64,000 nt of DNA. It comes from Candidatus Parcubacteria bacterium (GTDB taxonomy: Bacteria > Patescibacteriota > Patescibacteriia > UBA1558 > GWA2-36-10). This document shows positions 9,842 to 49,430 of this stretch, one piece after another. A program made the translations under genes and the position numbers. The stretch is taken from NCBI GenBank assembly GCA_018664825.1, contig JABJNO010000017.1:50743-114742 (forward strand), written 5' to 3'. Within the stretch, counting starts at the first letter, position 1, and each line of letters starts with the position of its first letter. A model generated the notes under the pieces. That model did not search any database. It was given only the letters and a program-made list of their open reading frames with translations, and was not told the DNA's origin.

Positions 9842-11848
9842 TTAAAATTTTATTACTTGTCCAGGATTTAGGACATTGTCATTGTTTGTGGGACCTGAGT
9901 TGTTCCCAGAAACAATCTTTGGTTTTCTAGCTTTCTTTTTCTCCTCTTTTTTCTTGGGTTGAGGTTTTGGAGTTTCTTTCTTTTTCTCCTCCTGGCCCAG
10001 GCCACCCTCTCCTCCAGAGGACCCTTTCTCGCTTCGCGATTCACCTTGTCTCGCTTCGCGATTCACCTTGTCTTTTTTAACTGGTTTTATTTCTGGTTCT
10101 TTTATTACTTCTTCTTTTTTTGTTTCGTCTTTTATTACCCTTGGCTTAGAAGAAGCTGATTTTCCAGCTGGTCCCATATTGAGAGCTTCAGATAAAGATA
10201 AAAATTCTTCTTTTGGCTGATTGGGTTTATCTTTGGAGGCAATCTTGATGCTAGATGGAGGTGGAATTTTGCCAGTTTTGGATAATGCCAAACACTCAGG
10301 ACAATAAATTGGTCGAGTAGGATCAGGTTCAAAGTTTATGATAGTGTCTTTACCACAAAAAGAACAATTTACTTCTTTGGCAGGAGTTGCACTTGGTCTT
10401 TTTGGCTTAGCATTATTAGCTGGCCTTGTATTGTTGGTAGGTCTAGTATTATTAGCTGGACGACTTGCTGCGGGGCGTGCATTGTTAAATGGTTTTGGAG
10501 CCGCACCTTTGTAGTTGTGGATAGTAGTTGGGATTGGTTTACCAACTTCTTCTTCTGGGCCTTTATTTTCGCTCCAACGGATAATTTTGTCTTCAATCAC
10601 AGCCCTTGGCTTGGCATATCGTTCACGAGTGACTTGGATAACTTTTTCTCTGATTAGAAAAGAATTTTCAGGTTCAGGTACCGGGGGAAGTGTACCGGCA
10701 GAAAAGCCATTTGAAGTGACTCCATCAATCATCAATTTTAGATAAACATCATACTTGGAGAGGTTTACCAAGTCTTCTTGGGTAAATGTTGGGAAGAATT
10801 CTTTTTCCAAAAACTCTGCATCGGCTGCTCCAATTCGAAAGGCTACAATAGTACCAACATTACCAAAAACAGCTGCTCGGACACCTTCTTCTACTTGTTC
10901 GATGTATTGATGAGCAATTACTAGGTTTAGTCGATATTTTCTGGCCTCAGATAAAATATTTGAAAATGATTCGGTGGCAAAGTTTTGGAACTCATCAACA
11001 TATAGATAAAAATCTTTACGTTCACTTTCGGGAGTATCTACTCTACTCATAGCTGCTAGTTGAATTTTGGTAATCATCATCGCACCAAGTAGAGCTGAGT
11101 TGTCCTCACCCACCCTACCTTTTGATAGGTTTAGGAGTAAGATTTTTTCTTCATCCATGATGTCACGCATAGCAAAAGATGATCTAACTTGACCCAAGAT
11201 GTTTCTAATCAAAGCAGAAGACAAGAAACGACCTACCTTATTTTGGATAGGAGCTATAGCTTCGGCTTGGAATCTATCTGGGTATTTACTATATTCTTCT
11301 ACCCAAAAGGCTTTGACTACGGGATCAGATATTTTTTCTACAACTCTTTTGCGAAAAGCCTTGTCAGTCAACATCCGCATGATGCCGAGCAAGGTAGAAC
11401 CTGGATATTCCAAAAGTGCAGAGATAGCATGATGCAATACATATTCCAAACGAGGTCCCCAAGAGTCAGCCCAGATTTTTTTGAATACACCAATCAGGCC
11501 AGAAACAACGAGATGTCTTTCTGCGGCAGATACTTTTTCCAAAACATTAAAACCAACCGGATTGTCTAGATCAGCTGGATTAAAATATATTGTGTCATTT
11601 ATCCTATGAGGTGGAATAAAGCCAAGTATTTTTTCGACCAAGTCACCATGAGGATCAACAACGCAGACACCTTTGCCCTCGTGGATGTCTTGGATAATCA
11701 TGTTTTCCAAAACAGTGGATTTTCCCATACCGGTTTTTCCAATAAAATACATATGACGGCGACGGTCGTCTTTTTTGATGCCAAATTTTACTTCAGAGTT
11801 TCGGTAGTTTGTTTTGGCAAACATTGTAACTGATGAGTTGTTATCCAT
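9842..11848 (-). CDS. FtsK/HerA-superfamily P-loop ATPase (VirB4/TraC- or TraD/VirD4-like), C-terminal half of a split module, with a zinc-ribbon and low-complexity tail
   Basis: RRRHMYFIGKTGMGKST...GKGVCVVDPHGDL, Walker B DFYLYVDEFQNF, and ARKYRLNLVIAHQYIEQ. The tail carries CSFCGKDTIINFEPDPTRPIYCPEC plus Asn/Pro/Lys-rich repeats. Confidence 0.7.
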   Translation of the reverse strand: MDNNSSVTMFAKTNYRNSEVKFGIKKDDRRRHMYFIGKTGMGKSTVLENMIIQDIHEGKGVCVVDPHGDLVEKILGFIPPHRINDTIYFNPADLDNPVGFNVLEKVSAAERHLVVSGLIGVFKKIWADSWGPRLEYVLHHAISALLEYPGSTLLGIMRMLTDKAFRKRVVEKISDPVVKAFWVEEYSKYPDRFQAEAIAPIQNKVGRFLSSALIRNILGQVRSSFAMRDIMDEEKILLLNLSKGRVGEDNSALLGAMMITKIQLAAMSRVDTPESERKDFYLYVDEFQNFATESFSNILSEARKYRLNLVIAHQYIEQVEEGVRAAVFGNVGTIVAFRIGAADAEFLEKEFFPTFTQEDLVNLSKYDVYLKLMIDGVTSNGFSAGTLPPVPEPENSFLIREKVIQVTRERYAKPRAVIEDKIIRWSENKGPEEEVGKPIPTTIHNYKGAAPKPFNNARPAASRPANNTRPTNNTRPANNAKPKRPSATPAKEVNCSFCGKDTIINFEPDPTRPIYCPECLALSKTGKIPPPSSIKIASKDKPNQPKEEFLSLSEALNMGPAGKSASSKPRVIKDETKKEEVIKEPEIKPVKKDKVNREARQGESRSEKGSSGGEGGLGQEEKKKETPKPQPKKKEEKKKARKPKIVSGNNSGPTNNDNVLNPGQVIKF
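10028..10071. repeat. Perfect 22-bp tandem duplication inside the ATPase tail CDS
   Basis: ctcgcttcgcgattcaccttgt occurs twice in tandem; 22 is not a multiple of 3. Confidence 0.85.
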
Positions 11849-11854
11849 TTTGTT

Positions 11855-13357
11855 TTAGGTAGGCAAATTAGGTGGTGGTGAACTCTTTGGTACATTAGTC
11901 GAAACAGTTTCGGGATCTTTTTTGACATGAGTTTCTTCGTATACTTTATTGTCAGTATTGATTTGTATTTTTTCAGTTGCAGCATTGAGCTGACCACGGA
12001 GAGCGTCAGAGATATCTCTTTGTTCATCCATAGGTCCAGTAGCAAATGGCAGAGATGAAGGTGGTTCGGCTTTTTTGGACTCTGTTCTTTGGAGTAAAGG
12101 CGCTCTGATAAATTTACTTGGGAAGTGCCAAAGAGTAGCTAGCTCTTCGATGCCCAAAATAAAAAAGTTATGTCCACGAGCACCACTACGATCTCGGTAA
12201 CCCTTCATTAGGTTTTCTCGACGGATTTTTTCACGTTGTTTTATAAAAAAATAGTTTATTTTTGTCTTGGTACGAGGATCTGGTTTGAAAGAGTTGAGAT
12301 CTAGAGCTGCAAATTGTTTGATACTACCAAAGACAGAAGATATTACCCTAGCTGGAGAATATACTTCTATTGGTGCGATATAAATAAGACGTATTTTACA
12401 TTCAAAGGCTAGCTTGGAAGCTTTTAGCTCTATAGCTTCGATCAGGCCTTTTTCTCCAGGAGTAAGATGAAGCATCATACTAGGCATGTCGTCTTTTTTG
12501 TTGGCACTAGCAGCTCCACCGGTTCCATCGCCTGGTAGTATAAAAGGCTCACCGGTAGAAAGAAAAAATAGTCCAAATATTGAGCCAAAAGTACTGGTTA
12601 TAAAATTTCCTTTTTTAGGAGGTGTTTTTTTACTAGCTATTTTATAAGCGAGTTCCATACTTTTTTTGACCCAATCAAAACCTGTGGGTTTGACCAATAT
12701 CTGGAACCAGACTTGTTCACCTGGTTGGATTTTACTCATAGTTTCCAGCATAGAAGCCAAAGGGTCTTTGAATCTTTCTTCGGCGGAAGGGTCTTCAAAA
12801 TGAGTATAAGTTTTGATAGGTATTGCTTGGTTTGTGACAGGAATTACTTCGGTACCCCAGATTTTGTGAGTTTCATTTGGGAAAGTGTATGGAGCATTTT
12901 GGACGTAATCCTCTACTTCAGTAATCTCAGCATCTGGATATTGTGAGTATATAGAGCTTTCTATCAAATCACGATAATGAGTCGGAGTCCAAATCAAAAA
13001 TTGGACATAACCATCTATACTTACTATTTCAAAAGAAAAGTGAAGCTGAAATTGACCCCACATGTACATCTCTTTGGCGTTGAGCATAGCATGAGCACCA
13101 GAGACAGTGGCAAACAATTGTTCGACAGCCTTTGGGGTTTGTTCGGTATCTTTTGGGACATCTACAGCTAGTAATACAAACTTGTTGGTACCGTACCATT
13201 TTATTTGTTGACCCATTAGCCAAATATCATAAGCACCCCAGCCAATGATATAAAGTATTATTACCCAACCTCCATGGGAAAAGAGATACCAAAAAGCAGG
13301 CCATGTTCCTTCATTGCCGAGATTGAGTAGTGGTGTAAAATCTATTACTATATCCAT
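11855..13357 (-). CDS. Membrane-anchored N-terminal partner domain of the split ATPase module (hypothetical)
   Basis: An N-terminal transmembrane helix is followed by a roughly 450-aa domain. HFSFEIVSIDGYVQFLIWTP is homologous to VFSLEIVSVNGLINFYAAIP at the N-terminus of the fused paralog at 31412-33859. The stop lies 7 nt before the ATPase start. Confidence 0.55.
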   Translation of the reverse strand: MDIVIDFTPLLNLGNEGTWPAFWYLFSHGGWVIILYIIGWGAYDIWLMGQQIKWYGTNKFVLLAVDVPKDTEQTPKAVEQLFATVSGAHAMLNAKEMYMWGQFQLHFSFEIVSIDGYVQFLIWTPTHYRDLIESSIYSQYPDAEITEVEDYVQNAPYTFPNETHKIWGTEVIPVTNQAIPIKTYTHFEDPSAEERFKDPLASMLETMSKIQPGEQVWFQILVKPTGFDWVKKSMELAYKIASKKTPPKKGNFITSTFGSIFGLFFLSTGEPFILPGDGTGGAASANKKDDMPSMMLHLTPGEKGLIEAIELKASKLAFECKIRLIYIAPIEVYSPARVISSVFGSIKQFAALDLNSFKPDPRTKTKINYFFIKQREKIRRENLMKGYRDRSGARGHNFFILGIEELATLWHFPSKFIRAPLLQRTESKKAEPPSSLPFATGPMDEQRDISDALRGQLNAATEKIQINTDNKVYEETHVKKDPETVSTNVPKSSPPPNLPT

Positions 13358-15597: not shown

Positions 15598-17256
15598 TTA
15601 TTTTCTTTTTATTCCGAACAAGGATAATTTATTTTCGATTTTTTTATTTACAATCATACGTAAAAAGGTACGGGTAACAGTAATAGCAGAAAACATTGAG
15701 ATCATAATACCGATCGCTAGGGTGATAGCAAATCCTTTGACAATAGAAGTACCAAACCAAGCCAAGATCAAACAAGTGATGATTGATGAGACATTTGAGT
15801 CTCTGATAGATGGCCAGGCTCTAGAAAATCCATTTTCAACAGCAGTATGTAGACTGCGACCTGTTTTTAGTTCTTCTTTGGTTCTTTCAAAAATCAATAT
15901 ATTGGCATCAACGGCCATACCAATAGACAAGATAAATCCAGCTACACCAGCCAGGGTAAGCACTACATTGAGGCTTTCAAAAATAGCTAGAGTCAAGATT
16001 GTATATATAGCCAAAGCAAGTACAGAGATAAGGCCAGGTAAACGATAAAATAAGAGCATAAATAAAGCTGCAGCCAAAAGTCCAATAATACCAGCCAGTA
16101 AACTTTTTTGTACAGAAATATGACCCAAGGTAGCCCCAACAGTCTGTTGGCTAATGATTTCTATAGGTACTGGTAAAGCACCTAGGTTGAGATCTTTGAT
16201 TAGGGTTTTTGCTTCTGGGATAGTAAAATTACCAGAAATCTGAGCTTGTCCGTCAGTGATTTTGTCTTGGACAACTGGACTAGACCTCAAGAAACCATCG
16301 AGGAAAATTGCCACAGGTTCACCGAGATGTTCTTCTGTTATTTTGGCAAATATATCTTTACCTTGATCATTGAAGTTTATTAGTACAAGTGGCTCTTGGG
16401 TGTTTTGTTGAAAAGCTAGTTGAGCTTTCTCGATATCTTTACCGGTTAGACCAGCGTCTACCCAATTTATATTATCAGTTAAAGCAGCTGCCTTCTGGAA
16501 TAAAACATGTGAAGACAATACTTCCATCTGACCTTGATCGTTTATTTTTTCGTCAATTTTGTTGATTATATGATAGCCAAGATCTGATTCTACAAGTTCT
16601 GGAGAGATATCTCCTACTTTCATGTCTTCAAAAACTGCTTTATCAAACTCTGGTACAAAGTAGCCAGCTAGTTGCCAACCGAGGTCTCCGCCATTTACAG
16701 CAGATCCTGGGTCTTCACTATATTCGGTGGCAAGATTTGCAAAATCTTCACCAGCCAAAGCACGGGCTAGTACATCTTCAGCATTTTGACGTACTTCGTC
16801 AATTTCTTGGATATCAGACTCCTCCTCTATTATAGGTTCACCTTGGACCTTAAATTCCAAAAGAGGTGTCTTGTCAATAATAGCTACTGCTTCATTGACA
16901 TCTTTGATACCAGCAAGCTCTACGATGATTCTATAGCTGTCACCACTGTAGTTTGTCTGGATAAGTGGTTCAGACACTCCATAGGCATTTACACGACGTT
17001 CTATGACGTCTCGAAGGGCTTCTACACCATCTTTTTTGACATCATCTTCCAATTGAGAGACATCAGCCTTGTAAACTAAATGGGTACCACCTTGTAAATC
17101 AAGTCCTAAACGGAGCTTGAAATTACCGAACCAGCCCGGGCTAGTAGGCCAAACCATCAGGGTTGTAAATATAGTAAGGAATACTATAAAAATAAAGCTA
17201 GCCCGTATTTGGTTGGTAGTCACTCTTTTTTGATTTGGTTTGTTGTAATTTGTCAT
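15598..17256 (-). CDS. secD: Protein-export membrane protein SecD (with a parvulin-like PPIase signature in the periplasmic domain)
   Basis: N-terminal transmembrane helix, P1 head, C-terminal 6-TM SecD core. Internally: FANLATEYSEDPGSAVNGGDLGWQLAGYFVPEFDKAVFEDMKVGDISPELVESDLGYHII. Confidence 0.85.
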   Translation of the reverse strand: MTNYNKPNQKRVTTNQIRASFIFIVFLTIFTTLMVWPTSPGWFGNFKLRLGLDLQGGTHLVYKADVSQLEDDVKKDGVEALRDVIERRVNAYGVSEPLIQTNYSGDSYRIIVELAGIKDVNEAVAIIDKTPLLEFKVQGEPIIEEESDIQEIDEVRQNAEDVLARALAGEDFANLATEYSEDPGSAVNGGDLGWQLAGYFVPEFDKAVFEDMKVGDISPELVESDLGYHIINKIDEKINDQGQMEVLSSHVLFQKAAALTDNINWVDAGLTGKDIEKAQLAFQQNTQEPLVLINFNDQGKDIFAKITEEHLGEPVAIFLDGFLRSSPVVQDKITDGQAQISGNFTIPEAKTLIKDLNLGALPVPIEIISQQTVGATLGHISVQKSLLAGIIGLLAAALFMLLFYRLPGLISVLALAIYTILTLAIFESLNVVLTLAGVAGFILSIGMAVDANILIFERTKEELKTGRSLHTAVENGFSRAWPSIRDSNVSSIITCLILAWFGTSIVKGFAITLAIGIMISMFSAITVTRTFLRMIVNKKIENKLSLFGIKRK

Positions 17257-21258: not shown

Positions 21259-21978
21259 TTAGTTTCCTCCGAATCTTCTTTGGCGTTTATTGAATTCATC
21301 AATAGCCTTGTCTAGCTCACTTGCATCAAAGTCAGGCCAAGTTGTATTAGGAAAATATAGTTCACTGTACACTGATTGCCAAGTCAAGAATCCAGAAAGT
21401 CTTTTTTCTCCCGAGGTACGGATAATCAATTCAGGGTCAGGAGTATCTCCACTGTATAGATATTTACGAAATGATTTTTCGTTTAGCTCATCAGGACCTA
21501 TCTTATCTTTGATAATATTTTTGACAGCATTTAATATTTCTAGCCGACCACCATAATTTAGGCAGACATTGAGTAGGCCTTTGGTATTATCTTTGGTTTT
21601 TTCTTCAGCATCTATGATGCCTTGGCGTAGTTCATCATCAAAGGCGGATATATCCCCCATTATTTTTAGTCTAATGTTTCTTTTGGATAGTGTGTTTACT
21701 TCTTTTTTTACCAAAAGTTTAAACAAGTCCATTAAATAGGCAACTTCTTCTTTACTTCGATTCCAGTTTTCTGTGGAAAATCCATAAACAGTCAAAGTGT
21801 TTACACCTATATCAAAAGCATAGGTGGCCACGTCTTTTAGGATATCAAATCCTTTTTTGTGACCCTGAAGAGTTGTTAAGCCTCTTTTTTTGGCCCAGCG
21901 TCTATTGCCATCCAAAATAATACCAATATGTTTGGGTATAATTTTATCCATTTTTATTTTATACAGTTTCGTTAGCAA
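21259..21978 (-). CDS. uppS: Isoprenyl transferase / undecaprenyl-diphosphate synthase
   Basis: HIGIILDGNRRWAKKRGL and the C-terminal RFGG are hallmark cis-prenyltransferase motifs. Confidence 0.9.
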   Translation of the reverse strand: MLTKLYKIKMDKIIPKHIGIILDGNRRWAKKRGLTTLQGHKKGFDILKDVATYAFDIGVNTLTVYGFSTENWNRSKEEVAYLMDLFKLLVKKEVNTLSKRNIRLKIMGDISAFDDELRQGIIDAEEKTKDNTKGLLNVCLNYGGRLEILNAVKNIIKDKIGPDELNEKSFRKYLYSGDTPDPELIIRTSGEKRLSGFLTWQSVYSELYFPNTTWPDFDASELDKAIDEFNKRQRRFGGN

Positions 21979-22345
21979 GAGATTCTAATACAAATCTAGA
22001 AATAGCATAAGCGGTCAATATGATGATAAGTCCAATCAAACTAGCCGTCATCACTTCTTTACTTTTACCTGTTTTGTCTGCATTTCCACCTGAGGTCATA
22101 TAACTGATACCACCAAAGATAATGCCGACTGTAGCAACAATACCCAAAAATCCTAGGGCAATATTTATCACTCCAGCGATTGTATCTCGCAGGCTTCTAG
22201 TGCCAAGATTCACATCATCTATATCATCATAGCCCCAGTCTGCTGTTGATTGAGCTTGAGCCAAAAGTGGCATGGCTAGTAGCATAAAAGTAAAGTATTT
22301 TAGCAATGTTTTTTTCATTTTTTGATTAAACAGTCTCGTTGGCAA
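21959..22345 (-). CDS. VirB2/TrbC-like pilin candidate (signal peptide plus two transmembrane helices), copy 2 of a tandem pair
   Basis: Signal peptide ...LLAQA, then two hydrophobic helices; conserved C-terminus SRFVLESLANETV; 128 aa. Confidence 0.5.
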   Translation of the reverse strand: MPTRLFNQKMKKTLLKYFTFMLLAMPLLAQAQSTADWGYDDIDDVNLGTRSLRDTIAGVINIALGFLGIVATVGIIFGGISYMTSGGNADKTGKSKEVMTASLIGLIIILTAYAISRFVLESLANETV

Positions 22346-22685
22346 GAGATTCTAATACAAATCTAGAGACAGCGTAGGCTGTAAGGATAACAGCTAAGCC
22401 AATAACACCGGCGCTGATAATCTTTTTTGCTTTATCAATTTTGTCAGTATTTCCAGCTGAAGTCATCCATTCGAAACCACCATATAGAATAAGTAGTGTG
22501 GCAAGGATTCCTAAAAATCCCAAAGCTATATTGATAATACCAGCGATTGTATCTCGTAGACTTCTAGTACCCAAGTTGACCTGATCTAAATCATCATAGC
22601 CCCATTCTGCTACTGATTGAGCTTGAGCCAAAAGTGGCATAGTTAGTAGTGCAAAAGTGAAGCACTTTAATCCTATTTTCTTCAT
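22326..22685 (-). CDS. VirB2/TrbC-like pilin candidate, copy 1 of a tandem pair
   Basis: 119 aa; about 65% identical to the neighbouring gene and has the same architecture and the same C-terminal SRFVLESLANETV. Confidence 0.5.
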   Translation of the reverse strand: MKKIGLKCFTFALLTMPLLAQAQSVAEWGYDDLDQVNLGTRSLRDTIAGIINIALGFLGILATLLILYGGFEWMTSAGNTDKIDKAKKIISAGVIGLAVILTAYAVSRFVLESLANETV

Positions 22686-22702
22686 GGTTTTTTATTAAGT
22701 TA

Positions 22703-23251
22703 TTAAAATTCACCTTCCAAAACATGTAGCTCGGGATTATTATCAAGTCCCAAGGCTGTTGTTTCTAAGGTTATTACTATTTTGTTATAAGATAATAATA
22801 TTTCAGGAAGTTCGGTACGTTCATAACTCAAGACATAATAGTTGTCTTGCTTTGTCAGTTTACCAGTAGAGACAAAAGAGTTTGGGTCAATACCGCCAGT
22901 CAACCAGCCTTCATAAAATTTGTCATCTCCCGGATCTGCTAAACCTGCTCGTACAGAGTGTATGTATATATCTAGGCCGTTTGTTTTTAGATTGGCAGTA
23001 CCAGCACCACTATAGTCGCCAACAGCTTCTAAAACTGTGCTACGAGTGATCAAATCTTCAATTATTCGATCTTCGTCTATTGGTTGAGTTGAGATTATGT
23101 CATCATCGTCAGTGTCCTCTAATAGTTCAATGACACCTGTATTATCATTGGTTTTGGTGATATTTTCATCAGCATCTTTGGTAGTTTTGAAAACCACAAC
23201 TACTATTGCAAGTACTAATATAAAAATTATAAAATAATTTAGATTTTTCAT
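22703..23251 (-). CDS. Membrane-anchored extracytoplasmic protein (hypothetical)
   Basis: N-terminal transmembrane helix, an acidic linker (DDDDIIS) and a C-terminal globular domain of about 110 aa. Confidence 0.45.
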   Translation of the reverse strand: MKNLNYFIIFILVLAIVVVVFKTTKDADENITKTNDNTGVIELLEDTDDDDIISTQPIDEDRIIEDLITRSTVLEAVGDYSGAGTANLKTNGLDIYIHSVRAGLADPGDDKFYEGWLTGGIDPNSFVSTGKLTKQDNYYVLSYERTELPEILLSYNKIVITLETTALGLDNNPELHVLEGEF

Positions 23252-23406
23252 AGAATTATAGTTTATTTAACAGAGTGATTATACCAATTAAATTGCAATT
23301 TGCCAATGTTTATTGACCTAGTGTTATATTTATGGTATATGTATAAGTCGTTCTTTGCACTGTTAAATTAGTTGGAAGCCTTTCAAAACAAAGCCAAGGA
23401 GAAAAA

Positions 23407-23964
23407 ATGGAGCTATCAACCTATATTCAAGAAGCGTTGGATCGGATTCAAGAATCTGACCTAATCGAACCCGAAGGTGAAGTCGCACCTGATGAAGAGG
23501 TGCTCGGAGTGCTTCCTCTGGAAGCTCGCAAGATTGATGCCTTAAGAACTCAGTTGGTTGGAAAACTCAGGGCTAATCTCAAAGATTGTCCTGAAGGAAT
23601 CTGTAACGAGTCTTCGGAAGTCTGCGGACGCTGTGAAGAGTTCAAATCAATCCTAACCCTTTTATCCTGTAGGTTTATTGAATCCGTCAAGTATGAATTC
23701 AAAAACTACTTTATTGAGGGCATTGGCCTTCGTCGTGGCTGGGTGGCTGTAAGTCTCCCTGCTGAGCGTGAGCACTCTATGCCGGATATGGATATGTTAC
23801 CCGAGATACTGGGTGATGCTATCGGTATGATGGTGATTGGATCTGATGGTACCCAAATTGTCGGTAGTGGTAGCGACGGCATGGATGATTTTCCCACTTT
23901 TCCTGGCGAGGTTCATACCGGAACAATGCGTCGTGGGAAAAATGGCAAGGGTGGCAAAGGCTAA
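23407..23964 (+). CDS. Hypothetical protein (plus-strand, elevated GC, Cys-rich central motif)
   Basis: AAGGAG RBS; CPEGICNESSEVCGRCEEF; Gly/Lys-rich C-terminus; strong terminator downstream. Confidence 0.5.
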   Translation: MELSTYIQEALDRIQESDLIEPEGEVAPDEEVLGVLPLEARKIDALRTQLVGKLRANLKDCPEGICNESSEVCGRCEEFKSILTLLSCRFIESVKYEFKNYFIEGIGLRRGWVAVSLPAEREHSMPDMDMLPEILGDAIGMMVIGSDGTQIVGSGSDGMDDFPTFPGEVHTGTMRRGKNGKGGKG

Positions 23965-23971
23965 CCAAAAA

Positions 23972-24012
23972 CACCCCGTTAGAAAATATTTTCTAACGGG
24001 GTTTTTATTTTT
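23972..24012. terminator. Strong bidirectional rho-independent terminator
   Basis: ccccgttagaaaatattttctaacgggg flanked by A- and T-runs. Confidence 0.65.
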
Positions 24013-24524
24013 TATATTTTTTTGATTGATTTGAGAAAGCCGTAAGCTATCACACCGCCTATCAAAGCTGTCGCTAGCTGAGGCCAGCTCATCACCCCAG
24101 ATACTTTGGCTGCTATCGGAGCTTGGACTATCAGATTAACTACTATAAAACTAGTAGCCCACAAAAACACAAACTTCAAAACACTACCTACTACAATGCC
24201 ACCGAAAAAGTTTTTTTCTCTAAAATAGTTGAATCCCAATACATAAATAGCATTACTAATAATGATAAAAGGTATCATTGGGGCCAAAGGGGCTGGCAAA
24301 AGTCCAACACTCAAGGCAATGGTACTAGGAATCAAGCCAAATAAGACAGCATTTTGGACACCGAGTAAAGATACAGCGACTATCAAAACAGCATTTACTA
24401 TCGGCCCAGTGAGCCATTGTTGGTGAAATAACGGCAAGATGGATATTACACCGAGCAAAGATACATATTGTATCATGGTAATTTGCTGAGCTTTGCTCAA
24501 GCTCATAGTTCTTGTTAGAGACAT
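24012..24524 (-). CDS. Small polytopic membrane protein (ECF-transporter S-component-like)
   Basis: 170 aa with five hydrophobic helices; no specific motif recognised. Confidence 0.45.
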   Translation of the reverse strand: MSLTRTMSLSKAQQITMIQYVSLLGVISILPLFHQQWLTGPIVNAVLIVAVSLLGVQNAVLFGLIPSTIALSVGLLPAPLAPMIPFIIISNAIYVLGFNYFREKNFFGGIVVGSVLKFVFLWATSFIVVNLIVQAPIAAKVSGVMSWPQLATALIGGVIAYGFLKSIKKI

Positions 24525-24539
24525 ATTTTTATATTTTAA

Positions 24540-26264
24540 TTACTTTTTAGGGAATACTTCTTTTTTCTTTTTCATAAATCCAGTATGGCAAACATTGTGA
24601 ACATTTTTGTGATCAGCCAAGAATTCGTCATAAATTTCTTTGACTATTGGACTGTCATCCGCTAGGCGTATTTTTTTGTTGGTATCTACAGTATATAGTC
24701 CGGCGGCTCGTTTTTGGCGTATCTCATCATTTACTGGTACAGGTTGGCCTCCTCCACCGATACAACCACCAAAACAAGACATTACTTCTATATAGTCATA
24801 CTTGTTTGGTTGTTTTTTTAATTCTTCTATTATTTTGCGAGCATTTGAAATACCATTTACTACTCCTACACTGACTGTGTTACCTTTGATTTTTATCTTA
24901 GCTTCTTTGAAGCCTTCCATGCCGCGGACTTGTTTGAACTCTATACGAGGCAATCTTTTGCCAGTAATCATCTTGGCGGCAGTTCTCAAGGCTGATTCCA
25001 TCACACCACCACTAGCTCCATAAATCACTCCAGCACCTGTAGGTATTCCTAGTGATGAGTCCAATTTTTCAGGTTTAAGATTTTTGAAATCAATTTTATT
25101 TTTTCGTATCAAGTGAGATAGTTCGCGGGTAGTCAATACTTGATCAACTGGATAAATTCCATTTATTTTCATTTCTGGACGTTTTATCTCATATTTTTTG
25201 GCTACACAGGGCATTATAGATACAACGGTAATGTCTTTTGCTTTGAGGCCCATTTTTTGAGCCCAGAAAGTTTTTATCAGACCACCCATGATAATTTGTG
25301 GACTACGAACTGTAGTGAGGTTTGGTAACAATTCTGGATGATAAAATTCTGCAAATTTTACCCAACCCGGACAACAAGAAGTAAACATCGGCATCTCACC
25401 TTTGTTTTGGATACGATCTATCAACTCAGTAGCTTCTTCGATAGTTGTGACGTCAGCTCCAACGCTGACATCAAAGACATGCTTGATACCCAAGGCACGT
25501 ATAGCAGCGATAAGTTGGCCAGTGACAACACTACCTGGGGGCATGCCAAATTCTTCACCAATGGTACTACGGATAGATGGAGCAAATTGGAAGACGACTG
25601 TTTTTTTGGTATTCAAAAGATGTTTGTCTACACCCTCAAACTCACCCACGCCTTCAAAAGCTCCGACGGGGCAATGAGTCAAACATTGTCCGCAATATAT
25701 ACAGTCTTTATCTTTTTTGTCACTAGGCATTACTTCAAAAAACTTGCCTTTCTTTTTGTATTCTAAAAAATCAACACCAACTTTGTGACAAGCTTCTATA
25801 CACAACCCACAATCAATACATTTACTACTATCAAATTCCAAGGCTGGCCCAAATTTGTGAACAGGATGATGTTTTTTTCTATCAGTAAACTTGTTTATTT
25901 TTACTTTGTATTTTTTGGCATAATTACGGATTGTGCAATTTTGATAATAAATACAATCACTGCATTCTTCGCAGTGCTCACTAAAAATAAGTTCTAGATT
26001 TATTTTTCTAGCTCTTTTTATATTTGGAGAATCAGTAGTTATCTTCATGCCATCGCTTACTTCCGTACTACAAGAAGTGTGTAAACCATTCTTCCCTTTT
26101 ATTTCTACATTACAAAGACGGCAACTACCTTGTATTTTTAGATCTGGGTGATGACATAAGGTGGTAATATAAATATCATTGGCACGAGCTACATCCAAAA
26201 TACTCTGACCAGAGTCAGCTTTATATTTTTTTCCGTTGATTGTAATGTTTATTTTTTTTGGCAT
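24540..26264 (-). CDS. hydA: [FeFe]-hydrogenase catalytic subunit (N-terminal 2Fe-2S and 4Fe-4S domains plus H-cluster domain)
   Basis: H-cluster motifs TSCCPGWV, MPCVAKKYE and EVMSCFGGCIGGGGQP; the N-terminus has ferredoxin-like Cys clusters. Confidence 0.85.
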   Translation of the reverse strand: MPKKINITINGKKYKADSGQSILDVARANDIYITTLCHHPDLKIQGSCRLCNVEIKGKNGLHTSCSTEVSDGMKITTDSPNIKRARKINLELIFSEHCEECSDCIYYQNCTIRNYAKKYKVKINKFTDRKKHHPVHKFGPALEFDSSKCIDCGLCIEACHKVGVDFLEYKKKGKFFEVMPSDKKDKDCIYCGQCLTHCPVGAFEGVGEFEGVDKHLLNTKKTVVFQFAPSIRSTIGEEFGMPPGSVVTGQLIAAIRALGIKHVFDVSVGADVTTIEEATELIDRIQNKGEMPMFTSCCPGWVKFAEFYHPELLPNLTTVRSPQIIMGGLIKTFWAQKMGLKAKDITVVSIMPCVAKKYEIKRPEMKINGIYPVDQVLTTRELSHLIRKNKIDFKNLKPEKLDSSLGIPTGAGVIYGASGGVMESALRTAAKMITGKRLPRIEFKQVRGMEGFKEAKIKIKGNTVSVGVVNGISNARKIIEELKKQPNKYDYIEVMSCFGGCIGGGGQPVPVNDEIRQKRAAGLYTVDTNKKIRLADDSPIVKEIYDEFLADHKNVHNVCHTGFMKKKKEVFPKK

Positions 26265-27244
26265 TATATCAATTTTTTAACAGCTGATCTCATAGGTGGG
26301 ACAACCATTTTTCCCAAAGCACAAAAACTAGTATTTTCTAAAACAAATAATAAATCATCCAAAACTTTTTTGTCTATACTTCTATCACGGATCATTTGCA
26401 TCAAACGATAGGTGCCTTCTCTACAAGGAGTACATTTGTCGCAGTTTTCTTCCATAAAAAACTCCATTATCCGACGCATAAATGCATAAGGGTCGGTATT
26501 GTTTTTATCATAAATCACAATAGAACCACTACCAATCACTTGGTGGTGTAGTTCGTTTTGCAAGAGTACTTCTCCGCTAGCCCCGCCACCCATTTGAACA
26601 AAAAAATCAAAGTCAGGTATATTGCGAGTATTTTCCAGAATTCGATCTATTGGCCAATTGATGGGTAGTTCAAAAACACCTTTATTTTTTACTTTACCCA
26701 AGATAGTGATTAGTCGAGTTTTTTCATAATCATCATCAGCTATCTTGGCAGCATAGTAAAAAGTCTCAATATTATTTATCAAAGTTGGGAAACCATAGAC
26801 GCCAGCTTGTCCTGGGAACGGTGGTTTGATGCGCGGACGAGCTATTTTATTTTCTATTTCTTGGCAGACGGTGGTTTCTTCACCAGACAAATATCCTCCC
26901 CTTTCTTTGAATATAGTAATTGGTAATTTACCAATTAATTTTTGCAACTTGGATTGGTATTTTTTGAAGTAGTCTTTTCGTAAATATATTATAGCTTCAC
27001 TGTGGTCAATAGCTTTTAAAGCAAGCTTAAGGCCCTCGATCAACAATTCGGGGTGATTTTTGACTATCCAACCATCTTTATTGGTATCTGGTTCGCCTTC
27101 TGAGCCATTGGCCACTATGTATTTTTTGGTAGCTTTTTGGTCTTTGACCATTTGCCACTTTAAGTATGTAGGAAAATTTGCTCCTCCCCTACCTTTTAGC
27201 TCAGCCTTTTTTAATTTTTGTATTATATTTTTGTTTTTCACCAA
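26264..27244 (-). CDS. NuoF-like (HndC/HydB-type) NAD(P)H-binding flavoprotein subunit, compact form
   Basis: GRGGANFPTYLKW, GGYLSGEETT, CDKCTPCREGT; 326 aa; its stop overlaps the hydA start. Confidence 0.75.
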   Translation of the reverse strand: MVKNKNIIQKLKKAELKGRGGANFPTYLKWQMVKDQKATKKYIVANGSEGEPDTNKDGWIVKNHPELLIEGLKLALKAIDHSEAIIYLRKDYFKKYQSKLQKLIGKLPITIFKERGGYLSGEETTVCQEIENKIARPRIKPPFPGQAGVYGFPTLINNIETFYYAAKIADDDYEKTRLITILGKVKNKGVFELPINWPIDRILENTRNIPDFDFFVQMGGGASGEVLLQNELHHQVIGSGSIVIYDKNNTDPYAFMRRIMEFFMEENCDKCTPCREGTYRLMQMIRDRSIDKKVLDDLLFVLENTSFCALGKMVVPPMRSAVKKLI

Positions 27245-31411: not shown

Positions 31412-33859
31412 TTATATTATTACCCTTTGATCTACCTCTGCCTCGACTACTTTTCTATCCCGTCCATATTTAATACGAGAAAGCTCTTTGATGGCCATAG
31501 CTAGCTCATAATTGCCCTTTTCAGGCAACTGGGGTTGGAAGTTAAAGGCGGGTGGATTGGCGTTGTCTATCAATAATTTTATATAACAAGTGTACTTTGG
31601 CATATTGATCAAGTCATATTCAGAGACCACTGGAGCCATTTGTTTGGCTATGACCTCAGCATCTTCTACACCAATACGATATGAAATCAAAGTACCAACA
31701 TTACCAAAGATAGAATCTTTGATGCTGGTATCCCCTCCTTGAGTAAGTTGGGCAATGTACTGATGAGCAACTATAAGATTTAGTTTGTACTTTCGAGCTT
31801 CTGACAAAATACTAGCAATACTATCTGTCATAAAGTTTTGAAACTCATCGATATATAAATAAAAATCCTCACGTTGGTCTTCTTCTATGTCTACTCGACT
31901 CATAGCAGCAAACAATAATTTTCCGATTACAATCATACCAAGTAGGTTGCTATTCATTTCACCGATTTTACCCTTGGAAAGATTCAACAATATAATTTTG
32001 TTTTCATCCATGGCTTGGCGAAAATTGAAAGCAGATTTTTCTTGGGCAATAATAGGTCTGACCAAATCATTTGAGATAAAAGGAGTAAGTTTTGAGGTAA
32101 TATAAGGTACCATGTTGGCAAGAGATGCTTCACCGCCGGCTTTTTGAGCTTCTTTTTCCCAAAAGTCTTTGACGAATCTATTTTTTACTTTTGAGAGTTT
32201 ATATTTTCGGTAGTCATCATCAGCAAGTACTTTTGGAATCTCTAGCAAGGTAGCTCCACTTTCTTTGTCATCCATGATAAGCATCATGGCATTTCTCATA
32301 TATTGCTCAAACATCGGACCACCCGTAGCTTTGAGGTCGTAGAGTTTATCAAAAATATTTAATATCTCATTGATAACAAAAACCTTTTGTTCATCATTGT
32401 CATATTCGAGCATATTCATACCCAATGGTCTTTCAGCATCAGAAGGATCAAACAAAATTACATCCTCTGCCCTTTCTTTTGGTACATGGGTCAATGCCTT
32501 TTCTACCAAATCACCATGAGGATCAACCACGCAGACTCCTTTGCCAGCTTCAATGTCTTGTTTGATGAGCCCTTCCAAAAATACAGACTTACCAGTACCA
32601 GTTTGACCAATTTCGTACATATGACGACGACGGTCTGCTGGTTTCATACGTACTAGGGTTTCTTTGCCACGATAGCTATTTACACCCAAAATAATACCAT
32701 CTTCAGACATATTGTTTGGTGGCGGAGCTTTGACGGCTTCTAACCAGTCTATGTTTGGGGTTTCGGTAGTAGGTAATGGTAGATGCATGACACTGGTCAT
32801 TTCTTCGGAATTTAGCAACAACATATTTTTTGGTATGTAGTGTCGATAGATAAAATGATGTATCAAAGTATCTGGTTTTTTTGGAATAATAGCTTTAAAA
32901 CTATTACCAAATTCATAAATATTGTATTGACTATAACTATTTAATATATCGTTTAAAATAGCACTTGAACGGACCATTTCTTTTGTAGAAACAACAATCC
33001 TAGCATTTACCTCTAGGCCTGATTTTGAGGTTTTTTCTTCTAGGCCCTTGGCACGCTCTTGTTCCATACTCGACAATGGTTGGTGTGCTTCAGGAGTTGT
33101 TGAATCTTTATCACCTTGAGTTTGTACAAAACTAAATATAAAACCAAAAACTTTGCCTGCGGCAGCTAGTCCTCCGGTGCCTCCTGCTTTGTTTAGGGCC
33201 TTTTTATAAGTCATGCCACTTTGCATTTCAGTGGCAATCTTACGTCCTCTTTTGTGCCATTTTTTAGGAGCTGATCGGAAAACATACTGTACAGCAGCGG
33301 ATTCATTTTCGGTCAGCTTACTCATGCTATTGGTGATACTTTCTAGTGGATCAGTTTCAAATTGTTTGAAGGTTTTTATGGGTAAGCTAGCATCTCCGGT
33401 AAAACGTAAATGACCAGCGGCTATCTGGCTATCATTTTGAAAAATATTGTAATCACGCATATCCTCAAAGTATATTTTGGGATATACAGCCTGGAGTTGT
33501 TGAATAAAAAACTCTTTGTATATTTTTGGGATAGCGGCATAAAAGTTTATCAAGCCATTGACCGATACTATTTCTAGAGAAAAAACATCAGTCCTAGGAG
33601 CTAGGAATTTTTTATCTACTTTTAGGCCAGCCAAAGACATAAAAAGATTTTCTATTTTACCAAGAGCATTTTGAATATACTCTTTGGTCAACTCTTCTTT
33701 TTCTTGTTTGGTATACTTGGGGATTTTTATCAAAATGACCTCAAGTTCCAAATCCTTATTGGCTTTGGTTTGTAAGTTTGAGCGAACCAAATATAAAGCT
33801 AATGCTATGACAAAAGCAAGTCCTATAACGCCCCCAATTATAATAACTGTTGTGTCCAT
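31412..33859 (-). CDS. Fused membrane N-domain plus FtsK/HerA-superfamily ATPase (VirB4/TraC-like architecture); paralog of the split pair at 9842-13357
   Basis: 815 aa with an N-terminal transmembrane helix. Walker A near residue 425 (RRRHMYEIGQTGTGKSVF...GKGVCVVDPHGDL), Walker B DFYLYIDEFQNF, and ARKYKLNLIVAHQYIAQL. Confidence 0.7.
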   Translation of the reverse strand: MDTTVIIIGGVIGLAFVIALALYLVRSNLQTKANKDLELEVILIKIPKYTKQEKEELTKEYIQNALGKIENLFMSLAGLKVDKKFLAPRTDVFSLEIVSVNGLINFYAAIPKIYKEFFIQQLQAVYPKIYFEDMRDYNIFQNDSQIAAGHLRFTGDASLPIKTFKQFETDPLESITNSMSKLTENESAAVQYVFRSAPKKWHKRGRKIATEMQSGMTYKKALNKAGGTGGLAAAGKVFGFIFSFVQTQGDKDSTTPEAHQPLSSMEQERAKGLEEKTSKSGLEVNARIVVSTKEMVRSSAILNDILNSYSQYNIYEFGNSFKAIIPKKPDTLIHHFIYRHYIPKNMLLLNSEEMTSVMHLPLPTTETPNIDWLEAVKAPPPNNMSEDGIILGVNSYRGKETLVRMKPADRRRHMYEIGQTGTGKSVFLEGLIKQDIEAGKGVCVVDPHGDLVEKALTHVPKERAEDVILFDPSDAERPLGMNMLEYDNDEQKVFVINEILNIFDKLYDLKATGGPMFEQYMRNAMMLIMDDKESGATLLEIPKVLADDDYRKYKLSKVKNRFVKDFWEKEAQKAGGEASLANMVPYITSKLTPFISNDLVRPIIAQEKSAFNFRQAMDENKIILLNLSKGKIGEMNSNLLGMIVIGKLLFAAMSRVDIEEDQREDFYLYIDEFQNFMTDSIASILSEARKYKLNLIVAHQYIAQLTQGGDTSIKDSIFGNVGTLISYRIGVEDAEVIAKQMAPVVSEYDLINMPKYTCYIKLLIDNANPPAFNFQPQLPEKGNYELAMAIKELSRIKYGRDRKVVEAEVDQRVII

Positions 33860-45825: not shown

Positions 45826-46179
45826 AAAAAAGGCTTAAAACCTAATAAGCCGAATTCTGTACCCCGAAGGGCGGTAATCATCTATCTAGGATGTGTATTG
45901 CTACACATCTCAAGCAACCTACCCGTTCCATAAAGGAACCAACTTGGTCTTGCACCTAATAAAAGTTTACCTCTTTCGGTATGTCACCATACTGACGCGT
46001 TAGCTAATTATCTAACGTTTTCACCCTTATCCGCAAGCGGAAGGAATATTCTCTGTTGCACTTGTTCTATTACTAGCTCACACTAGCAACGGTTGGCGTT
46101 ACCAACTATCATTTAATGGTGTTCGGACTTTCCTCTCCCTGAGTAAACTCAGGCAGCGATTACCTTGGTTTTAAGCCTT
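45826..46179 (-). ncRNA. rnpB: RNase P RNA (bacterial type A-like)
   Basis: On the minus strand: P1 AAGGCUUAAAACC pairs with GGUUUUAAGCCUU; P4 5' strand GAGAGGAAAGUCCGAAC; AUAAGGGUGAAAACG; CCUAGAUAGAUGAUUACC; P4 3' strand GGGGUACAGAAUUCGGCUUAUUAGG; a U8 tail. Confidence 0.85.
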
Positions 46180-46215: not shown

Positions 46216-46773
46216 CTATTTAGCTATTATTATTCTACCCCTAACTTGTCCATTACGTTCCAATTCCATGATCTTGTCTTCGGTAATTTTTTGGTATGAA
46301 TCAGGATTAAGATAGACGTCTCCTTCAATTACAATATTTTTAAAAAACATAGCTGGGTCAATATCACGATCTTTTAAAAATAAATCTCCCTTTAGTCGCA
46401 CCTCCATAAAAGATGAATCTTTTAGGCCCAGTTTATCTTGATTGGTAAACGCAAAGGCATTTAATTCTGAATAACTATCATCTATTGTTAATTTAAACAT
46501 GTGTCCACCTGGTTTTGCAAATCTAATATATTCCCCAGTATCAATACCTCCATAATTTTTGGAAACAATCTTTTGTATTTGCATATGTTTAACACGAGCA
46601 TTGACTTCATGCACTACAATATAAAAATTAGTTAGATTACTTTTAATTTCATAACTCATTTTACGGATATTTTCTCTAGTAAATTCATCGTTATAAAAAC
46701 TAGACATCTTTTCGAGGTAAGTTTGTAACTTTTGATAGAGTTGTTTTAATTTTGGGCAATGTTGTTTATCCAT
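46216..46773 (-). CDS. Array protein i: N-terminal Cys-helix module plus C-terminal LRR-like (KGDxxL) repeats
   Basis: MDKQHCPKLKQLYQKLQTYLEKM; C-terminus ELERNGQVRGRIIIA resembles that of members c and e. Confidence 0.5.
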   Translation of the reverse strand: MDKQHCPKLKQLYQKLQTYLEKMSSFYNDEFTRENIRKMSYEIKSNLTNFYIVVHEVNARVKHMQIQKIVSKNYGGIDTGEYIRFAKPGGHMFKLTIDDSYSELNAFAFTNQDKLGLKDSSFMEVRLKGDLFLKDRDIDPAMFFKNIVIEGDVYLNPDSYQKITEDKIMELERNGQVRGRIIIAK

Positions 46774-46776
46774 AAA

Positions 46777-47385
46777 CTATCCTTTCGTTTTCCAACCTTT
46801 AATTCTTTCATTATCTTTTAAATTGTCCAAAACCTGCCCACCTATATCTGATGCTTGTTTGGGTGACAAAACAATAAAACCATCAACGGTAAAATAACTT
46901 TGAACAACATTTATAAAATGTGGATGTACAAAATTTAAACTAGCAACGTCTAGATCACCTTTATAAACAATACTTACAGGTTTTAATATGGGGTCAGTTA
47001 GTCTATCCATATGCAAAAATAACCAAGATCTAAATGCAGGAGAGCCCTGGTTTATTATAAGTTCAGCATCTTTAGAATTGTAATCTAAGTATTTACTAGC
47101 CATCTCGGGACTAATGGGATCTACAATACCGGTTCCGGTAATTTTTTCTTCCCTCAAAAGAAGCTTTGATTGACTGTGTAAACGATCCATAAATTTTAAT
47201 ACTTCCAAAAGTTCATGAACAATATCATAATCATCCCCCATGTCTGCGTCTATATTTCGGAATTTAGCTATCCAGTCCTTACTGTTGTCACGAGTAAGCT
47301 CAATATTTTCTGGCAAACCCAAAAGCTCGGCTTGTTTTTTTAGCTTGGCAATATATTCATTGAGTTGTAAGCAAAATTTATTCAT
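46777..47385 (-). CDS. Array protein h: Cys-helix N-module plus KGD..FVH..DG C-module (family f/g/h)
   Basis: MNKFCLQLNEYIAKLKKQAELL; VYKGDLDVASLNFVHPHFINVVQSYFTVDGFIVLS. Confidence 0.5.
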   Translation of the reverse strand: MNKFCLQLNEYIAKLKKQAELLGLPENIELTRDNSKDWIAKFRNIDADMGDDYDIVHELLEVLKFMDRLHSQSKLLLREEKITGTGIVDPISPEMASKYLDYNSKDAELIINQGSPAFRSWLFLHMDRLTDPILKPVSIVYKGDLDVASLNFVHPHFINVVQSYFTVDGFIVLSPKQASDIGGQVLDNLKDNERIKGWKTKG

Positions 47386-47386
47386 A

Positions 47387-47965
47387 TTAATCTTCTAATC
47401 TATAATCATGTATTTGCCCCGTCCTTCGGGCATCCAATAAACTAGCCATGATACTTACGTTTGTTTTTTCTCTAGAAATAATTATATTAGCATCTATCAT
47501 AATAAAATCTGGCCATGGTTCTAAAACAATATCATCAAATCCTACGTCATTATTTATCAATACTTTTTTGATACCAAATTTCTTCAGCCTTGATCTGTCT
47601 TCATTAAAAAAATTAATAAGATGTGTTGTATAAAGATTTTCGGGAACATTGCTCAAAATCAACATCTCATTTTCTAGTGTGGTATTTTTATCAAATATTT
47701 TATGAAATGCCACTAAACTGCCAATAGTCATTGTTTCCCCTTCAGATTTAAAGGCTTTTCTAGCATATTTTATTAGCTCACTACCCAAAAGGTCCTTTCC
47801 CATGGATAATCCTACAATTTTATCTATGTTTATTAAGATAGAATTTTTTGTAGCATGAGCTATATCAAAATCACCAATTTTTAAAGCTTCAGCAAGGCTT
47901 ATAAAAAGTTTTTGAGCATTAACTATATATCCTCTAGCTTTTTTACATTTTTGTTTTTTTGTCAT
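47387..47965 (-). CDS. Array protein g (PWPDF family)
   Basis: KQKCKKARGYIVNAQKLFISLAEAL; LINFFNEDRS...EPWPDFIMID. Confidence 0.5.
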   Translation of the reverse strand: MTKKQKCKKARGYIVNAQKLFISLAEALKIGDFDIAHATKNSILINIDKIVGLSMGKDLLGSELIKYARKAFKSEGETMTIGSLVAFHKIFDKNTTLENEMLILSNVPENLYTTHLINFFNEDRSRLKKFGIKKVLINNDVGFDDIVLEPWPDFIMIDANIIISREKTNVSIMASLLDARRTGQIHDYRLED

Positions 47966-48588
47966 CCTACAATTTTATAATCCTTTATAAATCCCTTTCT
48001 TTTGTGGTGCTCCAAAATATTCATAGCATCATCATTTCCATCTATTTGTTCTTGACCCACTATCAGTGTACCATCTGTGTGTACAAAATCAGGCCAAGGC
48101 TTTGTATGAACCCACGCAAAAGAAACGTCGCCCTTAAATTTTAATGTCTTTACTGCAAACTTTTTTTGTCTTTGTCCTATTTTATCAAAACTAAGTCCTG
48201 TTCCTGAAAAAAAATTAATCAAATTGGCAATAAACTTTGGATCACCCATATTTTTTATTTCCAATGTCGCATCATCTTCAAAATTAACATGTCTCAAAAC
48301 GCTCATGCTCAAATTTTTTTCAACTTCAGGTGATATTTCTTTTCCTTCTTTTTTCTTGTCTTCCTCTATGTAGGCCCTAAAATCCTCAGTAAAACCTATT
48401 TTTGTAAGTATTTTTTTGGCGTCGATGATGTTTATGAGAACCTCTTTTTTGAATAAACCAATAGAGGGTGCCCCACCTCCTTGTTTGTACTCAGCCACGC
48501 TAGCCAAAGCCAAGTCATAATGATACTTGGCTTGCCCAAGGTAATCCTTTAAAGCAAGGCAATATAATTCTTTAGTTGATTTATCCAT
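47962..48588 (-). CDS. Array protein f (PWPDF family)
   Basis: KELYCLALKDYLGQAKYHYDLALASV; LINFFSGTGL...KPWPDFVHTDGTLIV; 4-nt overlap. Confidence 0.5.
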   Translation of the reverse strand: MDKSTKELYCLALKDYLGQAKYHYDLALASVAEYKQGGGAPSIGLFKKEVLINIIDAKKILTKIGFTEDFRAYIEEDKKKEGKEISPEVEKNLSMSVLRHVNFEDDATLEIKNMGDPKFIANLINFFSGTGLSFDKIGQRQKKFAVKTLKFKGDVSFAWVHTKPWPDFVHTDGTLIVGQEQIDGNDDAMNILEHHKRKGFIKDYKIVG

Positions 48589-49195: not shown

Positions 49196-49196
49196 A

Positions 49197-49427: not shown

Positions 49428-49430
49428 AAA

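Follow-up and report, generated by a model that had tools for sequence, protein, structure and literature searches.

Do two small, adjacent and similar genes on a Candidatus Parcubacteria chromosome encode pilins of the VirB2/TrbC type, and do the genes around them supply the rest of a type IV secretion system (T4SS)? Both ideas came from an earlier reading of the DNA alone (the original prediction), made on a 64-kb stretch of contig JABJNO010000017.1, which we refer to as the window. The source region is low-GC chromosome (~36% GC) and the pilin locus lies on its minus strand. The two pilin candidates, called P1 and P2 below, and a 182-aa protein encoded beside them match the NCBI proteins HON36_03045, HON36_03050 and HON36_03055 exactly, all three named 'hypothetical protein' in a 241-kb contig of a Candidatus Parcubacteria metagenome-assembled genome (MAG). 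Our analysis indicates that P1 and P2 are, on balance, likely to be paralogs within the VirB2-like pilin family of Patescibacteria, PF18895, whose subunits would enter a filament assembled by a T4SS, and that the 182-aa protein and two ATPases of the window are neighbours of the pilins and not components of such a filament.

The pilin pair and its family

The two genes, whose subtypes are described in the next section, are:

22326..22685, minus strand: pilin P2, type A, 119 aa, ATG start (HON36_03050; exact match to MBT4849805.1)
21959..22318, minus strand: pilin P1, type B, 119 aa, ATG at 22318 (HON36_03045)

Both proteins matched the Pfam family PF18895 (T4SS_pilin) above its gathering cut-off of 26.6 bits, P1 with 32.4 and P2 with 36.2 bits, and 70 or 71 of the 71 model positions were covered. 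The same family was matched by all 86 pilin relatives in our family alignment, 43 of which also matched PF04956 (TrbC/VirB2; cut-off 27.9 bits) at E<=0.01, sub-threshold and with a best E of 3e-6, and the proposal that the pair are VirB2/TrbC-type pilin candidates was borne out in this form. A word-indexed search recovered 257 relatives, all with PF18895, some of them under the source names Komeilibacteria, Buchananbacteria or 'pilin [Patescibacteria group bacterium]', and phmmer against 1.84 billion cluster representatives (50% identity) returned 29,800 matches at E<=1e-3 and 5,461 at E<=1e-10. For gene neighbourhoods we surveyed 10 kb around the pilin in the 80 closest loci of species-representative genomes (GTDB loci L017-L096; L001 to L097 number the relatives' loci and P00xx to P03xx the relatives' proteins). 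All informative taxon names among the pilin relatives were Patescibacteria, about 30 of the 80 genome records being titled uninformatively 'uncultured Gammaproteobacteria'. An hhalign comparison placed the family profile in register with Agrobacterium tumefaciens VirB2 (sequence from PDB 8cue; E 3.3e-4, probability 38%), the alignment spanning the mature N-terminus, helix 1 and the W-M motif and running into helix 2.

P1 had originally been listed at 21959-22345 as a 128-aa protein with a TTG start, which lies inside the end of P2 and creates a 20-nt overlap. We rejected this longer form because the ATG at 22318 (MKKTLLKYF) aligns to P2 without gaps, the relatives all start with MKK and the NCBI call agrees; the adjacent paralogs were thus correctly recognised as a pair, with true lengths of 119 and 119 aa instead of 128 and 119 aa. 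They share 87 of 119 residues (73%, ungapped) and 74% of their DNA, and a repeat finder independently returned them as a 367-nt direct repeat, a similarity far above chance. Comparison of their codons gave 57 identical, 31 with synonymous differences only and 32 that change the residue, from which it follows that both copies have had time to drift and that purifying selection acts on them. Recent gene conversion is an unlikely source of the 73% identity, given the 31 synonymous-only codons, some of which fall within the conserved N-terminal half.

Each precursor starts with MKK and a hydrophobic core and has Pro at -6 and AQA at -3 to -1. The Pro is kept in 85 of the 86 aligned relatives and Ala at -3 in 74, and a simple signal-peptide test (n-, h- and c-regions plus the -3,-1 rule) was passed by 76. 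The predicted motif ...MPLLAQA/QS (the slash marks the cleavage site) is identical in both proteins, and we infer a Sec-type signal peptide of residues 1-22 with cleavage after Ala22. For the remainder of the protein, Kyte-Doolittle analysis of P2 gave hydrophobic segments at 43-75 and 86-115 and AlphaFold2 gave helices at 2-20, 43-75 and 80-118 (predicted local distance difference test score, pLDDT, 78.5 overall and ~90 in the last two helices), so that the two methods agree with the original prediction of exactly two hydrophobic helices separated by a short polar loop. The layout of P2 is a transmembrane (TM) helix at ~43-72, a Lys-rich loop (NTDKIDKAKK), a second TM helix at ~86-106 and the C-tail SRFVLESLANETV, which is common to P1 and P2 as had been claimed; P1 has the same layout, but its loop is GGNADKTGKSKE, without the W and AKK motifs. 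Net charges for P2 and P1, respectively, were -3 and -4 in the mature N-terminus and +2 and +1 in the loop, with -1 in the C-tail, and by the positive-inside rule an acidic N-terminus, a basic loop and a C-tail of -1 predict an N-out, loop-in, C-out topology, which would be the arrangement of VirB2 and TraA.

The closest known counterparts are the VirB2-like pilins of other Patescibacteria, such as the array of Southlakia epibionticum ML1 and the 'Sec-secreted array' of Nanosynbacter lyticus TM7x, which belong to the same Pfam family, are of the same size, have a signal peptide and a hairpin, and are encoded by tandem chromosomal genes in a monoderm host; the window genes differ in lying outside a T4SS cluster, between a hydrogenase block and uppS. 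In a search of 3,035 Patescibacteria genomes with PF18895 and PF04956, VirB2-like pilins were found in 1,948 VirB4-bearing assemblies and near virB4 in 1,135 (Quinonero-Coronel et al. 2025, PMC12102498); the HON36 assembly is not named in the text supplementary tables of that paper. A 2025 review of T4SS nomenclature treats the Patescibacteria pilins as a recognised peculiarity (PMC12857230), and Gram-positive T4SSs normally have no pilus (PMC10633639).

More distant are Agrobacterium VirB2, RP4 TrbC and F-type TraA, which resemble P1 and P2 in having a leader, two hydrophobic helices, a basic loop and a similar cleavage context. The VirB2 cleavage site, which we take to be AAA/QSAGG, resembles the AQA/QS of the pair. 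These pilins differ in their leader, which has 47-51 residues against the short Sec-type leader of the window pilins, and the window pilins lie below the PF04956 cut-off; the window organism also lacks the outer membrane of diderm VirB2 systems and their VirB5, VirB7, VirB9 and VirB10 partners. The best NCBIfam match of both pilins was the Mycoplasma integrative and conjugative element protein Mbov_0395/MMCAP2_0565 (NF045849; residues 42-111, 70 of 80 model positions), likewise a VirB2-like protein from a wall-less or monoderm lineage, but the scores of 31.5 and 31.9 bits are below its 40-bit cut-off and no relaxase or VirB4_plasma gene is nearby.

If the Pfam match reflected hydrophobic composition only, P1 and P2 would be unrelated small membrane proteins of a holin-like or YqaE-like kind. 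Weak matches to MFS_1, DUF456 and EMC6_arch (E 0.01-0.04) and a fold search that was non-specific, a helical hairpin not being discriminated, are what this explanation would predict. It is nevertheless highly improbable given that PF18895 is matched above cut-off by P1, P2 and the 86 relatives, that a PHROGs scan of the pilins returned no holin family (one weak 'head protein' match appeared), and that the family conserves its signal peptide together with the invariant non-hydrophobic positions LGFLGI, GG, G78 and G96.

Two subtypes at the DnaX-uppS locus

The loop sequences separate the family into two subtypes. Type A, which includes P2 and most relatives, has the family-typical loop GGFxWMTSxGxxDK(V/I)DxAKK, and type B, which includes P1, L024, L037, P0018, P0036 and P0045, has GG(F/I)xxMTSGGNA(D/E)K... 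without W or AKK. Among 371 pilin open reading frames (ORFs) in the 80 representative loci, type B was confined to the DnaX-uppS locus, whose pilin content by genome was A, B, A+A, B+A, A+B or B+A+A.

Conservation between the types is a mosaic, a pattern that rests on a small sample of three genomes with both types. The mature N-termini of the closest A/B pair in each genome were 82-89% identical (66% for the more distant type-A copy of L010), and within-genome identity of the C-tail was 63-94%, or 73-94% for the closest pairs. Proteins of the same type from different genomes were less alike than these paralogs, at 51-67% in the N-terminus and 57-73% in the C-tail. For residues 60-100 the relation was mostly reversed: proteins of one type taken from different genomes were 56-75% identical, and A/B pairs of a single genome 48-58%, ranges that touch. 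A third close paralog in the same MAG, HON36_05000, which belongs to a second array elsewhere, has an identical C-tail.

The modest new point of this study is that the pair consists of two conserved subtypes with termini common within the genome and a differing central loop. Published Patescibacteria arrays, 441 of them with 2-11 pilin genes, have a mean within-array identity of 25% and a maximum of 54% (PMC12102498), so the window pair at 73% is above any of them, and its differences cluster in the central loop region instead of being scattered along the protein. This pattern fits two subunits entering the same assembly, either as major and minor or as alternative subunits. By analogy with published pilus structures, the homogenised parts would be the exposed parts if the packing is like that of VirB2 and TraA.

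A more specific reading is that the DnaX-uppS locus encodes a two-component filament, in which the canonical type A and the locus-specific type B are co-assembled from genes unlinked to virB4; we offer it tentatively, as something we think rather unlikely. If it is true, co-evolution or gene conversion would keep the outward-facing termini of a genome alike, even as those of different species diverge, and the loops facing the lumen or the cytoplasm would stay type-specific, giving one uniform pilus surface per species. Such a uniform surface would be the opposite of the antigenic variation that has been proposed for Patescibacteria pilin arrays.

Genes around the pilins

The original prediction joined the pilins to a VirB8-like third gene and to two ATPases in a dispersed apparatus. 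The features that bear on this are:

21259..21951, minus strand: uppS, undecaprenyl diphosphate synthase (Pfam Prenyltransf, 275 bits), starting 7 nt after the P1 stop
22703..23251, minus strand: membrane-anchored RskA_C-like beta-sandwich protein, 182 aa (HON36_03055)
23278..23306, minus strand: sigma-70-like promoter candidate, TTGGCA-17 nt-TGxTATAAT, 11 of 12 matches, 27 nt upstream of the ATG of the 182-aa gene
31412..33859, minus strand: 815-aa fusion of an N-terminal domain and a VirD4/TraD/TrwB-like ATPase (Pfam), one N-terminal TM helix
9842..13357, minus strand: split paralog of the 815-aa module, a 500-aa ORF (11855-13357) followed by a 668-aa ATPase (9842-11848)

The 182-aa gene, P2, P1 and uppS follow one another at distances of 17, 7 and 7 nt, and because a strong promoter-like site precedes them, the gaps are short and no terminator-like site occurs in 21700-23500, the four genes are probably co-transcribed here.

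The third gene does have the bitopic shape that had been described, with a TM helix at residues 5-23, a disordered acidic linker at ~24-66 and a folded domain at 68-181, but its likeness to VirB8 was not upheld. In the AlphaFold2 model (pLDDT 82, >90 in the domain) the domain is an all-beta sandwich resembling Cu/Zn superoxide dismutase (SOD), and the top 60 fold-search matches contained no VirB8 or NTF2-like chain. The protein itself had no Pfam match at E<=1, yet it is 47-50% identical (E 1e-28) to proteins that match PF10099 (RskA_C), as do 53 of its 55 homologs. It is presumably not an SOD, only two histidines (H98 and H176) being conserved. With the C-terminal domain of RskA it shares a single TM helix, a linker and an extracytoplasmic beta-sandwich. 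RskA binds its sigma factor through a cytoplasmic anti-sigma domain. The 182-aa protein begins MKNLNYFIIFILVLAIVVVVF, with the TM helix from residue 5 and no cytoplasmic domain. Judged by this sequence, it has no place for an anti-sigma (zinc-finger) domain, and neither an anti-sigma role nor the RskA mode of sigma-factor binding is open to it. An RskA_C-like gene occurred within 10 kb of a pilin in one of the 80 loci (L037), where it stands beside the hydrogenase block and uppS and not beside the pilin; it is not beside the pilins in L006, L008, L010 or L011, and distant homologs lie in unrelated neighbourhoods. The 182-aa protein is a neighbour of the pilins, not a component or a conserved partner.

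The ATPases had been described as VirB4/TraD-like, and of these two types only TraD/VirD4 survived. TrwB_AAD_bind (cut-off 20.5 bits) matched the two proteins with 45.3 and 37.9 bits, the lower score being that of the 815-aa protein, which also passed T4SS-DNA_transf with 33.8 bits, and homologs are named 'type IV secretory system conjugative DNA transfer family protein' at NCBI. A VirB4 identity was rejected, TIGR00929 giving 19.2 vs 643 bits and NF045975 (VirB4_plasma) 23.4 vs 590 bits, and neither ATPase had a Pfam CagE_TrbE_VirB match. The two are paralogous (phmmer E 1e-110), and the 815-aa protein has, in its N-terminal 400 aa, a homolog of the 500-aa ORF (E ~1e-12); this N-terminal domain carries PF26449 (DUF8128) in relatives. 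The 668-aa ATPase is soluble, with no TM helix and a C-terminal CxxC zinc finger. A separate survey covered 80 metagenomic loci with the fused form of the ATPase at 39-70% identity. Its recurrent partners there are an upstream ORF of ~160 aa, an ORF of ~195 aa and often dnaX, which are not T4SS genes, and a pilin lies within 10 kb in only one locus, that of the closest relative, on which ground we rejected the ATPase module as a general partner of the pilins.

An apparatus built from the pilins, the 182-aa protein as a VirB8 analogue and both ATPases is improbable on these data. It could draw on the probable shared transcript of the 182-aa gene and the pilins, on the Komeilibacteria-like relatives in which only ~2.5 kb lie between the fused ATPase module and the pilin downstream of it, and on the coupling-protein models that both ATPases pass. 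Against it, the 182-aa protein is neither NTF2-like nor kept beside pilins, and with a pilin in one of 80 ATPase loci the dispersed apparatus has no gene-neighbourhood support. Patescibacteria carry about two coupling-protein homologs per genome, which are rarely near virB4, and the one of S. epibionticum is not essential (PMC12102498). We regard the ATPases as neighbours of the pilins, although pilins and ATPases could conceivably belong to a shared machine with unlinked genes.

On the downstream side, uppS is a conserved neighbour of the pilin gene or genes (L006-L009, L011, L017, L019, L024 and L097). The Komeilibacteria-like order runs LepA, ~155 aa, ~160 aa, 817-aa ATPase, ~195 aa, DnaX, pilin(s), UppS, then a beta-propeller protein, a methyltransferase, Ddl, SecD and SecF, with no RskA_C-like gene. 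The window has an extra block of ~6.5 kb between DnaX and the pilins that is not in this order, consisting of an HD protein, a 238-aa ORF, a NuoF-like protein, an [FeFe]-hydrogenase-like protein, a 170-aa membrane protein, a plus-strand 185-aa ORF and the RskA_C-like gene. L037 carries the NuoF/hydrogenase block beyond the pilin instead, and there uppS and the RskA_C-like gene are directly adjacent; L010 has three pilins ahead of the hydrogenase genes and no RskA_C-like gene. The set of NuoF-like, [FeFe]-hydrogenase-like, 170-aa polytopic and in some cases RskA_C-like genes (24012-27244 plus 22703-23251) shifts relative to the pilins and uppS in L037, L010 and L005, which suggests that the NuoF/hydrogenase block is a movable unit. 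Lying between minus-strand genes, the plus-strand 185-aa ORF (23407-23964) encodes an acidic protein with several Cys, a Gly/Lys-rich tail and no family match, and the closest relative, L005, has no counterpart of it at this position. A near-perfect palindrome at 23969-24006 forms a terminator-like hairpin at the end of the upstream hydrogenase unit and looks like a bidirectional terminator for the 185-aa ORF and the converging gene of the 170-aa membrane protein.

Across the survey, the commonest neighbour of the pilin subfamily is a SBP_bac_1/8 protein, whose gene is co-oriented with a pilin ORF and immediately next to it in 40 of the 80 loci. The second array of the same organism (L001, 7562-10824, on the contig that encodes the HON36_05000 protein) consists of a SBP_bac_1/8-like gene followed by pilins of 215 aa (with a Cys-rich extension), 107, 115 and 132 aa. 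Arrays in related loci hold up to 15 pilin ORFs per 20 kb.

The window otherwise carries housekeeping genes typical of Patescibacteria (ClpB, SecDF, Ddl, UppS, DnaX, LepA, MurJ, MreBCD/PBP2, glycosyltransferases and RNase P RNA). Its SecD (15598-17256, minus strand) has a PPIC-type peptidyl-prolyl isomerase domain inserted at residues ~147-236, between the first periplasmic subdomain and the P1 head of SecD, an architecture also found in L006 and L008. Six tandem ORFs for soluble proteins of 185-208 aa (46216-49997, minus strand) adjoin the RNase P RNA gene (45830-46175); they have no Pfam match, and two pairs are 32-37% identical, similarity being otherwise weak.

Possible roles: filament subunits or membrane anchors

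The explanation that we favour, and consider reasonably likely as a whole, is that P1 and P2 are PF18895 pilins that supply a T4SS-assembled filament. The precursor would be inserted through Sec and cut by signal peptidase I after Ala22, leaving a 97-residue mature protein that is predicted to form a membrane hairpin with the N-terminus and C-tail outward and the basic loop in the cytoplasm. Subunits would then be drawn from the membrane pool by the monoderm-type T4SS (VirB4, VirB6, VirB3 and TrsD homologs) that most Patescibacteria encode, whose machinery in this genome would have to sit outside the window. By homology and from the genetics of S. epibionticum, the product may be a pilus or a stalk-like surface filament for contact with the host cell. 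In that species, transposon sequencing (Tn-seq) showed the T4SS cluster, including a predicted series of pilins, to be essential for epibiotic growth (Wang et al. 2023, PMC10633639).

Several results weigh against this explanation. PF04956, the profile first proposed for checking the pair, gave P1 a score below cut-off (17.9 bits, E 0.0036) and P2 no match, and it was PF18895 that both proteins passed instead. Searching PDB sequences with the pilin profile (hmmsearch) returned GPCR noise alone (E>0.04) and no solved pilin, the fold search was non-specific as described above, and tblastn of P2 against 72,556 plasmids gave no match. VirB4, VirB6, VirB3 and TrsD were not detected in the window, and the 10 kb around the pilin in each of the 80 closest loci contained no VirB4-like ATPase, a 507-aa ORF in L067 and a 461-aa ORF in L085 being unscanned; VirB6, VirB3 and TrsD were likewise absent from these 80 loci. 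Screening of the loci for Walker A motifs in ORFs of 450 aa or more gave, apart from the coupling-protein module, five families: DnaX, assigned by clustering with the window DnaX, and four with Pfam-confirmed representatives, namely FtsK, SMC, an ATP synthase subunit and DnaA. Proximity to virB4 is frequent in the PF18895 family but does not define it, and it is not seen here; the link of the pair to a T4SS is thus one of homology only. Finally, copies of the pilin module stand at the N-terminus of proteins of 2,600-3,500 aa, in fusions with Ig-like domains and in 2-8 repeats per polypeptide, and such fusions and repeats fit an anchor as well as they fit a polymerising pilin.

This last observation leads to the alternative that the PF18895 hairpin is a general Patescibacteria module for envelope anchoring or membrane scaffolding, and that P1 and P2 stay in the membrane and never polymerise, serving for example as a membrane platform for co-encoded solute-binding-protein-like or surface proteins. 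Besides the giant proteins, the Big_5 or Cys-rich fusions and the repeats, this alternative is consistent with the SBP_bac_1/8 gene, rather than a T4SS gene, adjoining the pilin in half of the surveyed loci, with the absence of VirB4 nearby and with statements that no pilus has been observed in Patescibacteria (PMC10633639, PMC12857230). It is countered by the profile similarity of the family to TrbC/VirB2, by the many other Patescibacteria with pilins beside virB4 and by the S. epibionticum array inside an essential T4SS cluster, and fusions of pilin and adhesin are also compatible with a real pilus. We hold the anchoring alternative to be possible but doubtful.

Among the unusual forms of the module, a Big_5 Ig-like fusion of 556 aa is encoded at 9995-11665 of L085, and polypeptides with several pilin copies are found among P0202-P0348, some of which may be arrays joined into one ORF by gene calling. 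On giant proteins with the module, the literature yielded only an unrelated Omnitrophota study.

Of all parts of the Patescibacteria T4SS, the VirB2-like pilins are the least expected, being missing from other monoderm T4SSs. Arrays of them are essential in the single species tested, although a pilus made of them is still putative throughout the phylum. The pair P1 and P2 forms an ordinary and previously unannotated member of a well-documented Patescibacteria family, and nothing about it is categorically new. Its value is that of a clean, minimal case outside a T4SS cluster, with two conserved and evidently selected subunits of two subtypes, and with two tempting mis-assignments, a 'VirB8-like' neighbour and 'VirB4-like' ATPases, corrected. 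The mosaic pattern, if it proves to be wider, would set limits on models of pilin packing and of the surface that the host meets.

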